DNA of 64,000 nt. Source: Eledone cirrhosa. Its lineage: Eukaryota. Within the stretch, counting starts at the first letter, position 1. Each line of letters begins with the position of its first letter. A program made the translations under genes and the position numbers. The stretch is from positions 260,152,001-260,216,000 of the forward strand of contig OZ024740.1 in assembly GCA_964016885.1 (NCBI GenBank). Direction: 5' to 3'. This document shows positions 19,701 to 25,700 of this stretch, piece after piece. The notes beneath the pieces were generated by a model. That model searched no databases. It saw nothing but the letters and a program-made list of their open reading frames with translations, and was not told the DNA's origin.

Positions 19701-22700
19701 AGTCTGTCCATCACTATAACAATGTCATGTGGCAACCGAACTCTGGCTCCGCTTTGAGAGAGGTTTAGTGTGGCCAACTGGACTGTCCTTTCTCATAGTG
19801 GTGACATCCAGTTCCAGGCTCCCAAACTATGGTTTAGAAGCCTGGAACTGGATGACACCACTATGAGAAGGCTTCGTCGAGGCCAAATGGGCTGACATTC
19901 CTCACAGCGGTGTCACACTGCAAATGTGGTTGCCCAAAGTACGATTCCATTGTGAGAAGGGTTTGGCATGGCCAACTAGCCTGTCCCACTTTATAGCAGT
20001 ATCATCCAGTATGGGGCTCCAAAACTATGATTCTGCTGTATCAAGGGTTTGGCACAGCCAACTGCATGTCCCTCCTCGTATTGGTGCCATCCAGTACCAG
20101 GCTTCAAAACTATGGTTCCGCTGTGAAATGGGTTTGGCCTGTCCTTCCTCACAGTGGTGTCATTCAGTTCTGGGCTCCAAAACCATTGGCTCCACTGTGA
20201 GATAGGTTCGGCATGGCCATCTGGCCTGTCCCTCCTCATAATGGGGCCATCCAGATCCACACTGTTAATGTGGTTGGTATTAGAAAGGGCGTCCAATTGT
20301 AAAATACCCGGCCAAATTTACAATCGCGTCGAAGCATGGTATGATGTGGCCAATTCTGGCCAGACTTGTCTCCCAATGTAGATGATCCTTCTAGTACATA
20401 CATGCATGAGAAAATGGATGCTAAATGGTGATGATGATGATGATGATATATATATATATAAAATGTATGAAGCCGAATTTTTGGCTTTTGAAGCACTGAG
20501 AAATATATATATATATACAATATATTAACAAATGGAAACTATATTTATAAAACCATATTTATTTCATTATACATATTTCAAGGGCCACCAAGGCAGATTA
20601 TGGTGCGCTTTCATCAGATAAAATATAATATAGATTAGTTTTATAAATAAATATTGACATACCCTGAAAAATGCAACCTTCACGGTTGGAGTCTCCTGGA
20701 TAGTGGAGATACTAGATTTATTGTTGGTTTATTATGCAAATTAGTGTCGGAAAGGATTAAATAACAGCATATTTAAATTACGCCGTTGGAAGAGGGAAAA
20801 ACGAAAGAGAAAAAGAAAGAAAAAAAAATAGAAAAAGAAAAACGCTATTACTGTCCTTATAACTAATATTCTCTCCCACTTAAATATACTCACATTGTTT
20901 CTCTTTCTCTTTCTTTTTCTATTTCGTTTTTCCCTCTTCCAACGGCGTAATTTAAATATACTGTTATTTAAACCTTTCCGACACTAATTTGCATAATAAA
21001 CCAACAATAAATCTAGTATCTTCACTATCCGGGAGACTCCAACCGTGAAGGTTGTATTTTTCAGGGTATGTCAATATTTATTTATAAAACTAATCTATAT
21101 TATATTTTATCTGATGAAAGCGCACCAAAATATTCCTTGGTGGCCCTTGAAATATGTATAATGAAATAAATATGGTTTTATAAATATAGTTTCCATTTGT
21201 GAATATATTGTATATTTACTCCAATAACTTGTTGAGTGCTTTATATCAGTTATAAAAATATTTTGCTTGTTGTATCCCAACAAATTAAATATAACCTCTA
21301 CTTATATATATATATATATATAAAGAAAGAAAGAAAGTGCTGAACTGTTGAAATGCTATAAAGATAGCTTATAAAATAAGGTGAAGACCCTATGAGGAAT
21401 TGAACCCCATATCTTCCAGATACCAGCTAGAGACTTTAACCTTTAAGCCATGACAAATTATTTTTCTATCTTAAGGATCTTCACCCTATTTTATAAGCTA
21501 TCTTTACAGCATTTCTGCACTTGAGCACTTTCTTTATACTTATATATATATATATATATATACATATATATATATATATATATATATATATATATATATA
21601 TATACATATATATAAAAGACGTAAAATAAGAAAATATTTTTTAAAAAAATTTTAAAAAAATTTTTTACTTACTTACTTAAATTTTCACTCCAACTAATTA
21701 GTTTCTGCAATGGGATAAAGACAGTTACATAATCCAACTGTCGAGAATTCATTGCGTCATCAGGGAGTCTATTCTCAGCTGAGCCTCCAGGCAATGCGCG
21801 GACACTAGCGGCTCATATAAAAATAATAATTCGGTAGAAAGAACAGCTAGGCGAGGACTGGATTCTATGTACTGAAATTCTCACTGCTTCCAGTCAAATG
21901 TCCGATTCTAAAGAATCAATCACGTGACATAGAGGCTAGTTAGAAGGAATGGGATGGTAAGATGACTGACGCCTACTAACACCCCCAAAAAAAAATTTTT
22001 TTGAAGTGGTTTTGGCAGGTTTGCTCGACAAATCAGTGATTTGGAGATAAATATAGATAATTTAATATATCAACTAACATAGGCGCACAGATGCACGTCC
22101 ATGCCCGCAAATACACAGGTTATGTCATAGTACCTAGGTGGTTCAATGCAGGAGGGTGCAGAACAATAATATAAAAGACGTAAAATAAGAAAATATTTTT
22201 TAAAAAAATTTTAAAAGAATTTTTTACTTACTTACTTAAATTTTCACTCCAACTAATTAGTTTCTGCAATGGGATAAAGACAGTTACATAATCCAACTGT
22301 CGAGAATTCATTGCGTCATCAGGGAGTCTATTCTCAGCTGAGCCTCCAGGCAATGCGCGGACACTAGCGGCTCATATAAAAATAATAATTCGGTAGAAAG
22401 AACAGCTAGGCGAGGACTGGATTCTATGTACTGAAATTCTCACTGCTTCCAGTCAAATGTCCGATTCTAAAGAATCAATCACGTGACATAGAGGCTAGTT
22501 AGAAGGAATGGGATGGTAAGATGACTGACGCCTACTAACACCCCAAAAAAAAATTTTTTTGAAGTGGTTTTGGCAGGTTTGCTCGACAAATCAGTGATTT
22601 GGAGATAAATATAGATAATTTAATATATCAACTAACATAGGCGCACAGATGCACGTCCATGCCAGCAAATACACAGATATGTATATATATATACATATAG

Positions 22701-25700
22701 ATATATATATATGTATGTATATATATATATATATATATATATATAGGAAATGTATGTATATATATATATATATATAGGAAATCAAACCTGCCGGCCAAAC
22801 TGAAAAGGAGTTTCTTCAGAGCTGCTGTGGAATCTGTGCTTGTTTATGGCTCTATCACTTGGATGCTAACGTCGAAACTGGAGAAAAAGCTAGATGGGGC
22901 ATACACACGTATGCTCCGTGCTGCTTTAAACGTGTCTTGTAGGGAACACCCAACAAATAAGGATCTCTATGGCAATATACCACCTATCAGCAGGTCAATA
23001 CGTGGACAGAGACTCAGATTTGCTGGCCACTGTTGGTGCAGCAAGGAAGAAATAGCAGGTGATGTGTTGTTATGGAGACCATCTCATGGAGCAAGAAACG
23101 CTGGTCGTCCCAAGAAGACATACGTCAAGCAACTTGAGGACGATACTGGATGCACTGCGGAAGAACTGGCAAACGCTACGAGAGACAGAGATGGATGGAG
23201 GAAACGTGTCGTAGAAAGCCGAGCAAGCTCGACCTGATGATGATATATATATATATATATGTAGGAGGTGAGTTTTATTGTAGTACAATAAAGCAATGCA
23301 GATATCGGATAAGTAGCACTCTACAGTTTGTAGGACTGGAGTATAAATAATAATATATAAGATCAAAAGATGGTTAAAAGAGTTCCATGTATTTTATTAT
23401 GCGCATTTCAAAAACAAATATCATCATGCAATAACATTTGCGTTTTCGTCAGATAAAATAGGGAGACATGATATGAAGGTTAAAACACACTTGTGAATAG
23501 TGCAGTTTTGATATGTTGATTTAAAACTGCACTATTCACAAGTGTGTTTTAACCTTCATATCATGTCTCCCTATTTTATCTGACGAAACGCAAATGTTAT
23601 TGCATGATGATATTTGTTTTTGAAATGCGCATAATAAAATACATGGAACTCTTTTAACCATCTTTTGATCTTATATATTATATATATATATATATATATA
23701 TATGTATATGAAAACGGAGAGAAAAATACGATTATTAGGAATAAAAATATATTTTTTTATTTTTTATTCTCTTTTTTCTGGGTTAGAAAATGATTAAAAC
23801 AAAATATTTTATTTTGTGTGAAGTGTTAAGGTATTAGTTGATTTATTTATTAATTAACAATGGCATTTATTATTTATATATTTAATAATTGTCTATTACC
23901 AGTTTCAGCATTTTTATGCATTATCAAATGATAATAATATGTATTGGTGTAGAATGGTGGTGTTGGACATGTTAAAGAAATGGTGCAGAAAGAATAATGT
24001 TATTTACAAACAAGGTTTATGAAGTGAAAAGAAAAAATATATATATATATATATATAGGAGGCACATGGCTTAGTGGTTAGAGATTTGGCCTTGCAATCG
24101 AAAGGTTGTGAGTTCAATTCTCAGACCGGGTGATGTTTTGTTTCCTTGAGCAAGACTCTTTATTTCACATTGCTCCAGTTTACTCAGCTGTAGAAATGAG
24201 ATGATAGGGACTGGGGTCCATATCATTCCACTGCAAAGTGGTCGTGGATGTGCCACGGCAAAAAAGCACCCAGCACTCACTGTAAATGAGGTTGGTGTTA
24301 GGAAGGGCATCCAGCTGTAGAAATCAAGCCAGAATCAGTTCTCGTCCCACCCTTGCAAGCAGGGAAAAAGCGGACGTAAAATTAAATGATGATGATGATG
24401 ATATATATATACACACACACACACACACACACACACACACACATTATCACTGTATTATAACTTCATATATATACTAACAGAATATCATGAATATGCTTCC
24501 CATATTGACATACAGGCACAAATATTTCACTTGTGTTATCAATATAGATATCATACAATCACAAATATATTTCCAATATTAACACAATATAATTACATAT
24601 ATCTCCTATATTAAGATGATATAAACACGATATAAACACCATATAATCACAAATATATCTGCTATATTAACACAATATAGACATTATCTAGCATTAGGAT
24701 TATATATATATCTATATAACTATACTCATTTCCACACAAACAAGACTTATCTAGTGATCCCTGGGTTTATATATACTTTTGCAGTCAACCATTGAGTCTA
24801 TATGTAATCTATATGTATCCAGTGGGTGTATATCTATATATCTAAAACAGAGAATGTCTGTCTGTCTGACTCCCTAAAACTCGAGAACCACCCAACCAAC
24901 TTTTTTCAAACTTTACACATGTAATACTTATTAAATATTTCAAATTTTCAATGCCCTAGGGGCCTAGTCTTTCTTTTTAGATAGATATATAGATATAACG
25001 TTGCCCCCTTATAATATCTGTCTTATAATATCTGTCTGCATTACAACATTATGACGTTGCTATCTGTGTGTGTGTGTATATATGTATATATAGTGTGTAT
25101 ATATATATATATATATATATAGTGTGTAACGTTTTTAGAAATATTTACTTCTGCGTTCACAGATTGATTCTTTTAGTTTCAGAAGATCCCGTTAAGGGTG
25201 AAAGCAGCGATTCTTTGCTTAAACTTTAATCTGTTATTTTAATATATGTATATATATAATTATATATTCGTGTTGCATACACAATAACAAAATACAAACA
25301 AACGTATTTATTTCACGAGGCTCGACAGCAGCAAAAACAACAACAAAAAAGAGAGGGAACGCAATTACATGCTTTTGAAAAATCTTAATGGAAAATTATT
25401 TGCCTATTCACCCAAGGCGACTTCACTTTTTATTAGAACTTCTGCATCAATTGGTGAACATACGACAAAACTGTTTCAGAAAGGAGGGATAAACATGCCA
25501 ATCTATGTTTAGAATCCTGAGCAACGCCGGGCCATTCTGCTAGTGTAATCTATATGTATCCAGTGGGTGTATATGTAATCTATATACACCATTGGGTGTA
25601 TATGTAGTTTGTATGTTAGGAATTGGCAGAGTCATTAGAATATCAGATGGAATGCTTTGTACTATTCAAATCCCACCAAAGTCAACTTTACTTTTTCATT

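Follow-up and report, generated by a model that had tools for sequence, protein, structure and literature searches.

How different hammerhead ribozyme elements came to be stacked within 3.6 kb of a single intron is the question raised by a stretch of the genome of Eledone cirrhosa (GenBank assembly GCA_964016885.1, contig OZ024740.1, positions 260,152,001 to 260,216,000 of the forward strand). This stretch of 64,000 nucleotides (nt) is referred to below as the window, and all coordinates are those of the window. An original prediction had described an island at 20447..24060 as one diverse, non-coding family of (TA)n-targeting ribozyme retroelements. The modules of the island (A to E) were searched for in the same genome, so that every copy count given here is a lower bound. 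The results lead, with good confidence, to a different view: the island consists of independent insertions into (TA)n, namely the tails of two Hydra-clade Penelope-like elements (PLEs; modules A and D), the tail of a Neptune-type PLE (E) and a tandem retrozyme (B) likely copied by a Hydra-clade enzyme. Sequence comparison points to a bulged hairpin as the likely start signal that lets B borrow the Penelope copying enzyme.

Ends and hairpins of the two-armed insertions

Copies of A, D and B stop at fixed positions of two kinds, a short end at approximately 40-80 nt and a long end at approximately 130-200 nt past the predicted hammerhead cut site. Two-armed insertions of these modules combined one short with one long end in 62 of 64 cases: 17 of 18 for A and its sister families, 21 of 21 for D, 11 of 11 for B, and 13 of 14 for B in a pattern-drawn sample. 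Excluded before counting were L106 and one row each of D and L070, in which the pair lay over a (TA)9 run or linked two insertions. Single-match B loci split roughly 60:40 between short and long ends, so that independence would give about half mixed pairs. In E, by contrast, both arms carry the same end (4 of 4 pairs) and only one fixed end was present in the sample, which ties the footprint of B to the Hydra type. In addition, an arm resembled its partner in the same insertion more than it did most copies, with mean ranks of 0.19, 0.23, and 0.11 (n = 7, 22, and 23).

Just beyond these ends lies a bulged hairpin. The motif NYTC-[inner stem-loop]-TN-GARY begins 6-14 nt after the natural end. 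This held for 10 of 10 ends in the five families that have two ends, namely A, D, B, L042/L231 and a tandem family of 595 nt from L218 that does not code, compared to a background of 1.4-1.6%. Several additional families have the motif after their short end, and it was not found in L024, L155, L083 (a near miss) or the tail of E, the natural continuation of which was unseen. Within the island, the first hairpin of A lies at 21218-21237 (+), that of D at 23342-23318 (-), and those of B at 22164-22141, 22046-22024 and 22604-22582 (-). The ends also show microhomology, mostly of 4-7 nt. The B monomer contains five alternating-TA runs, and nearly all of its ends fall at the two followed by hairpins; microhomology alone was rejected as the end determinant, as B makes use of two of its five runs and the long end of D has only 2 nt.

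A held-out test was based on 78 Hydra-type loci fetched from metagenome contigs, 53 of which had enough upstream DNA. Two hairpins were found before the open reading frame (ORF) in 34 of them, one in 13 and none in 6, while the controls gave 4 of 53 on the antisense strand and 2 of 53 inside the ORF. The second hairpin lies approximately 35-95 nt before the start of the ORF match. A covariance model of the hairpin gave 137 matches, 133 of them on the ORF strand, and a model built solely from the foreign hairpins found the A hairpins (E = 5e-4 and 0.13-0.22) and the second hairpin of D (0.06). Local folds gave pairing probabilities of 0.8-0.9 for some hairpin copies and 0.1-0.25 for others. Another common repeat near TA runs (L172:439-473, L218:527-559, L160:3379-3411) also scores against the model (E 0.02-0.04).

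The paired hairpin might instead serve translation, control of the ribozyme or a DNA-level site, with the AT-rich stretches found there favoring priming. The short distance between the second hairpin and the ORF in the foreign loci would suit such a purpose and, being an inverted repeat, the motif is present as DNA too. However, the hairpin is kept twice in non-coding families that have no ORF, and the choice made by B among its five alternating-TA runs follows the hairpins; this explanation is regarded as unlikely. The paired hairpin, together with a strict end rule common to coding and non-coding elements, was absent from the papers searched. No paper on octopus hammerheads or on the paired hairpin was found in the open literature, and subscription papers, Repbase notes and some supplements may bear on this point. 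The word "hairpin" has no occurrence in PMC8557442, nor have "hammerhead" and "ribozyme" in the accessible part of PMC13282606.

Proposed priming on both strands of (TA)n

According to the proposed model, the Hydra reverse transcriptase (RT)-endonuclease would bind the two hairpins, which stand after the hammerhead cut site and ahead of the start codon, and would cut the self-complementary (TA)n on both strands. The two 3' ends would prime reverse transcription on the same RNA, each just 5' of one hairpin, with short AU microhomology aiding priming without choosing the site. The two complementary DNAs would then grow together until joined head to head. The product would be a mirror-image insertion in which one end is the short and the other the long one, and the (TA)n on both of its sides would be a target again. 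Since every copy reaches 40-200 nt past the predicted cut site, the template would be an RNA across an uncut or re-ligated (circular) hammerhead. B has no clear sequence in common with PLEs, yet it carries the hammerhead and two hairpins in the same order, as would a signal mimic; as a dimer, its RNA is predicted to cut itself into monomers of 559 nt, which may circularize. We lean, by a small measure, towards the general form of this model, in which a clade-wide hairpin pair loads the Hydra RT, both (TA)n strands are primed on one RNA, and retrozymes like B parasitize the process via mimics.

Two separate RNAs, joined by the palindromic stem III as a dimeric hammerhead or by a protein dimer, could also template the two arms. 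Cofolding of two copies predicts a dimeric hammerhead for B and D, the arms of L165 differ by two variants, and both arms copy the same region, for which one RNA would need strand displacement. By itself, however, the use of two RNAs leaves the different ends of the arms unexplained, and B subfamilies have the same stem III, yet the arms are nearly always of one subfamily. This alternative is judged rather doubtful, although it keeps some weight, and priming on a single RNA is preferred.

Several results weigh against the proposed explanation as a whole. The end rule has two exceptions (L083 and L273), and the queries that retrieved the A and D loci contained the tail, so that one arm was long by selection and only the partner arm was free in these counts. 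Microhomology is not universal, as seen at the long end of D. The foreign-only covariance model misses the B hairpins, the most divergent ones, and pairing probability is 0.25 for the second hairpin of B and about 0.1 for the first of A. Of 12 foreign 3' ends that could be tested, only 5 stop just before a hairpin; with a reference from the same family the figure is 5 of 6. Private variants split some B arms (L165), and L166 has a repeated three-unit block, which indicates that local duplication also shapes B arrays. Clade names were assigned by motifs and not by tree, and no start-site difference between strands is given for the Poseidon element of the anole (PAc) in the accessible part of PMC11167929.

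PAc offers a functional comparison (Frangieh et al., 2024; PMC11167929). This PLE cuts and extends both DNA strands, and its tail is defined by two internal sites of initiation, hammerhead cleavage not being needed. The Hydra model resembles it in the two internal starts that would define the tail, the cutting and extension of both strands, the AT-rich target and the uncut RNA template. PAc starts within the ORF at a single AC-rich stem-loop, without target homology, whereas here two like hairpins stand before the ORF; the AU microhomology at most ends and the near-strict pairing of one short and one long end are likewise unlike PAc. A tail that is optional on one of the inverted pseudo-long terminal repeats (pLTRs) is described in PMC3846280.

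Both the copying of animal retrozymes and the mirror-image insertions of PLEs with a tail on one side are treated as open questions (PMC7229834, PMC11167929). PLEs have been proposed as mobilizers of retrozymes (Cervera and de la Peña, 2020, PMC7229834; Li et al., bioRxiv 10.64898/2026.07.22.740005), and no recognition signal is named in the accessible parts of these two papers. The present locus supplies a candidate enzyme clade and a signal of approximately 20-25 nt from the position of which both start sites can be predicted, with the Neptune-type E as an internal negative control, and retrozyme mobilization thereby becomes testable in an existing in vitro assay. If the model is true, a cis signal for retrozyme mobilization would be named, and the PLE tail and mirror-image insertions would be explained in one step.

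Coding and non-coding modules of the island

Module A is made of two inverted arms. The short-end arm at 20518..20824 (-), an inverted, 5'-truncated 3' end, has its hammerhead core at 20617 and a predicted cut after 20568; the long-end arm at 20842..21300 (+) contains 3' untranslated region (UTR), a hammerhead with its core at 21111 and a predicted cut after 21160, and tail up to the long end. The palindrome, originally described with 305-bp arms, was recovered as 307 aligned nt, 296 of them identical. All A copies have a fixed 3' end in common and decay towards 5', and longer ones extend upstream into an RT and endonuclease ORF with the motifs RWR, DKT, YRDD, CxCX5C and CxxC..E..N..CxH, the linker being CNCRNKSNC and the endonuclease containing CALC..E and CKH. 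There were 509 homologues of the A protein; the 120 listed share 33-47% identity with it, and 111 and 105 of these 120 have the Hydra-type RWK-type and DKT motifs, respectively. The structure prediction, made for A only, reached a predicted local distance difference test score (pLDDT) of 88.6, with telomerase RTs as the best fold matches.

The long-end arm of module D, a 3' end of its PLE, lies at 23262..23509 (-; core 23452, predicted cut after 23398), and the short-end arm at 23523..23681 (+; core 23580, with 1 nt deleted from stem II; predicted cut after 23633). The arms are identical at 159 of 159 nt, exactly as first described. An ORF lies upstream of D in L066, L074, L193, and L302, and full-length top copies are 97-100% identical. 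The ORF contains DKT (L293/L295), YRDD, CxCX5C (CNCPVKNKC), CxxC..E (CNLC), and CLH; RW[KR] was not seen in the longest D frames. The natural continuation of D was seen in L293, L295, and L304, while each of 12 loci searched before them had nothing but TA-flanked ends.

Reading of the sequences by eye gave no CCHH motif in A or D, and no intact full-length ORF of either was present among the loci examined, with longest frames of 543 and 653 residues. Pfam profiles miss Hydra ORFs, and RVT_1 had no match to A. The element end is followed by (TA)4 in 30 of 30 A loci and 30 of 30 D loci. For A, a hammerhead and its tail stand directly upstream of the ORF in seven loci, and hence the tail forms the 5' portion of the unit that follows. 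By these sequence features, A and D are assigned to two coding PLEs of the Hydra clade, as their inverted and 5'-truncated 3' ends, D being a second, younger family.

The Hydra clade is defined by RW[KR], DKT, CxCX5C, CxxC, and CxH motifs in a single ORF, and includes Hydra-1_Obim from Octopus bimaculoides (Craig et al., 2021; PMC8557442). A and D are like it in these single-ORF motifs, the type I hammerhead, (TA)n insertion, the inverted 5'-truncated copy and the tail at one end, and this agrees with the architecture that had been recognized at the outset (PLE/retrozyme type I hammerheads in (TA)n-targeting retroelements). They differ from the description in PMC8557442 in their hammerheads, compared to that given for Hydra-1_Obim, in tails of about 90-120 nt against 30-40 nt, and in 3' UTRs of 1.0-1.4 kb. 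The A unit measures approximately 3.9 kb from cut to cut, as pieced from several copies, while Hydra elements are generally <3 kb.

Module E (23712..24036, -) is a 5'-truncated 3' end with a U3-A8 hammerhead-like motif (core 23927) and a weak stem I. An RT and GIY-YIG ORF stands upstream in L160-L163, with profile matches to RVT_1 (E = 5.6e-8) and to GIY-YIG (E = 0.0023, below the curated cut-off), and a CX4CxxC linker (CGRPNCGIC); from the CCHH motif, CxxC and the first H were seen, the copies being frameshifted beyond. These features are like those of Neptune-type PLEs (PMC8557442), which have an RT, a CX2-5CxxC linker and, C-terminally, a GIY-YIG with CxxC in the nuclease. E is identified on this basis as a Neptune-type PLE end, with Neptune and Nematis not separated by a tree and, in the sample, one fixed end only.

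The notion of one diverse, non-coding family has in its favor that no module codes within the window, that type I hammerheads, palindromic stem III and TA-flanked ends are common to the modules, and that B and the 595-nt family (L218) are truly non-coding. It is refuted for A, D, and E by the longer copies, in which three of the four hammerhead-bearing modules are coding, and the 3' regions of these three can be aligned neither with one another nor with B, apart from short AT-rich words. A single non-coding family is scarcely credible. The parts of the island belong instead to known kinds: Hydra and Neptune-type PLEs and a non-LTR (long terminal repeat) retrozyme.

Module B (21612..22670, -) is a single arm of 1.9 tandem units with a short end, with cores at 22322 and 21763 and predicted cuts after 22251 and 21692, which delimit a 559-nt monomer; this is the period originally given. 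Subfamilies of 522-571 nt share 73-94% identity, and the genome holds at least 8,808 exact matches to a 23-nt motif of B. Arrays reach up to 13 units, mostly 97-99% identical, and are TA-flanked. The longest ATG frame has 27-67 codons in 12 monomers, and GC content is 34-37% in five. No run-on into a PLE ORF was found at 57 loci (both array sides in 17, plus 40 further), and B is the only non-coding hammerhead-bearing module of the island. A direct sequence link between B and PLEs was rejected, as the matches were short and AT-rich (best E = 0.04). Contigs of two organisms hold B-like DNA covering part of the unit, with no listed variant at core positions; they attest presence only.

Pairing holds in 97.6% of cells among 32 distinct hammerheads of B. 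Compensatory pairs occur in stem II (C-G/U-A/A-U and G-C/U-A), the inner hairpin in loop II covaries too, and the covariation score was reached by none of 500 shuffles, a result that is inflated by relatedness. Stem covariation was one of the checks put forward with the original prediction, and it was found. B could alternatively be a satellite that arose from a dead PLE terminus by unequal exchange, with its hammerhead as a relic and without any travel as RNA. This model is discussed in the bioRxiv paper of Li et al., and L166 has higher-order blocks, while similarity within arms is above that between loci (0.9% vs 1.4%). Against it stand the thousands of dispersed loci, the two fixed ends, the mirror-image arms that are often both multimeric, the compensatory changes in stem II across the subfamilies, and the circular folds of all five monomers examined, with z between -2.5 and -8.2, although the reverse strand folds nearly as well. 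A satellite origin is therefore considered quite improbable, and a retrozyme that moves as RNA is the reading retained. Rolling-circle copying of B is plausible: array-wide private variants occur in L166, L169, L170, and L028. Repeated blocks and arm differences occur too, and make pure rolling-circle copying of one monomer less certain.

B is like metazoan non-LTR retrozymes in being tandem and non-coding, in its GC content and in having a type I hammerhead in each unit (PMC7229834; bioRxiv 10.64898/2026.07.22.740005). It is longer than the typical metazoan retrozyme of approximately 300 nt, is known here from DNA alone and, unlike those described, has (TA)n insertion, PLE-type mirror arms, two fixed ends and a candidate recognition signal. 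Minimal PLE hammerheads are predicted to work as dimers, with low activity (Cervera and de la Peña, 2014; PMC4209133). The motifs of the island share with them the palindromic helix III and large helix II, and B also the extra nucleotide between 9 and 10.1 and G10.1-C11.1; the extra covarying hairpin in loop II of B, and the family-fixed U3-A8 core and imperfect stem I of E, are unlike them. A second non-coding tandem family (L218:2459-3053, 595 nt) has a U3-A8 core with well-formed stems and both hairpins, with short and long ends in L138 and L164.

Module C (21322..21540) is a terminal-inverted-repeat element without hammerhead. Its description as an inverted-repeat/tRNA element was borne out by a tRNA fragment at 21392-21451 (30.4 bits, compared to an Rfam gathering score of 29). 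A left piece at 20460..20502 (+) is cut off from it by the insertion of A into the internal (TA)n of C, since in 11 of 29 other C loci this piece stands 8-42 nt before the C terminal repeat. Relatives are 67-98% identical over aligned pieces, and none of 29 C copies has a hammerhead. C is an older element and would resemble miniature inverted-repeat transposable elements. Its copies carry varied internal cargo between the terminal repeats, including the tRNA-derived fragment. Hairpin-model matches in the C terminal repeats (E about 1.5) were taken as chance. The original list of modules was incomplete, as it left out a 5'-truncated 3' end like that of long interspersed nuclear elements at 22776..23245 (+), with a (TGA)n tail and a 153-codon open frame. 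It has no hammerhead and no Pfam match, and is presumably RTE-like by resemblance.

Hammerhead census and the host intron

A strict type I hammerhead descriptor gave seven matches in the window, one at 9529 and six in the island (cores 20617-, 21111+, 21763-, 22322-, 23452-, and 23580+), all six with a palindromic stem III. Local dinucleotide shuffles of the window (n = 60) gave 0.033 strict matches per window, and 1 of 1000 shuffles of the island gave one match. Six of the seven island motifs originally counted are thus recovered by the strict scan, while the seventh, the U3-A8 motif (core 23927-), was found only by an additional relaxed scan (0.25 matches per shuffled window). To pair, its stem I needs a bulge or an insert of 3 nt, which is the family state in 30 copies, and the statement that all motifs have stem I closed is not confirmed. 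U3-A8 hammerhead cores can be active. A fixed U3-A8 core is also present in two other families with well-formed stems, and unpaired 3-8 forms are single mutated copies. Rfam gave no hammerhead family match in the window or in six hairpin-bearing loci, and its microRNA matches were dismissed as low-complexity or hairpin artefacts below gathering scores.

In the genome, 40 evenly spaced 10-kb stretches (399,800 nt) gave 26 strict matches (two satellite and two weak ones counted), or roughly 60 per Mb, while five shuffles gave 0, 0, 0, 1, and 0. The expected enrichment next to (TA)n was also observed: (TA)5 lies within 260 nt 3' of the cut site in 19 of 26 matches, compared to 19.7% of random positions. 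The island is approximately 25-fold denser in strict motifs than the genome average (6 in 3.6 kb vs 26 in 400 kb), and represents four insertions that accumulated independently at a single microsatellite-rich site, without functional unity. The first 0.8 Mb of the loci L151-L305 contains about 29 hammerhead clusters, with a fixed U3-A8 core in several families; C3-A8 and U3-G8 cores were seen only as single mutated copies.

Six further motifs had been placed elsewhere in the window, for a total of about 13. Two of them are intact, at 9529 (+) in the strict scan and at the window edge (about 63975) when the next genome stretch is appended. By eye, the motif at 4970 is decayed, that at 8870 is split by inversion, that at 47948 lacks G12, and that at 34930 is not supported. 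Credible motifs in the window number about 8-9. The 9529 family occurs twice, intact at 9500-9600 and with an inversion inside loop II near 8870 (8790-8960), and the edge motif belongs to a D-related two-armed insertion spanning the window edge (63935-64000 + L195:1-270), with a full hammerhead in one arm. The decayed motif at 4970 lies 3' of a decayed PLE at 5464-6722 (-) with an RT fragment (RVT_1, E = 0.003).

The intronic position of the island and the (TA)n runs between its modules were both confirmed. The host intron, at 15121..26015 (+), is 10.9 kb long with GT..AG junctions, and belongs to a C-1-tetrahydrofolate synthase (MTHFD1-like) gene. The flanking exons at 15058-15120 and 26016-26093 (+) were located by tblastn with a protein query, the PF00763 profile having no match to the upstream host exons; the nearest named host protein is from Octopus vulgaris, with 85% identity across the query exon. 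Two of the seven island motifs are in the sense of the host pre-mRNA and the other five are antisense. The two sense motifs are predicted to be locked in long inverted-repeat duplexes, with a stem I probability of 0.0 compared to 0.5-0.9 alone. As only these two are sense and both are predicted to be sequestered, the island probably costs the host little.

The inverted pairs at 20518-21210 and 23350-23681 would give 300- and 160-bp double-stranded RNA in the host pre-mRNA. Cephalopods show heavy RNA editing, and these duplexes are possible editing substrates. Just left of the island, at 19500-20260, lies a degenerate tandem repeat of approximately 80-90 nt.

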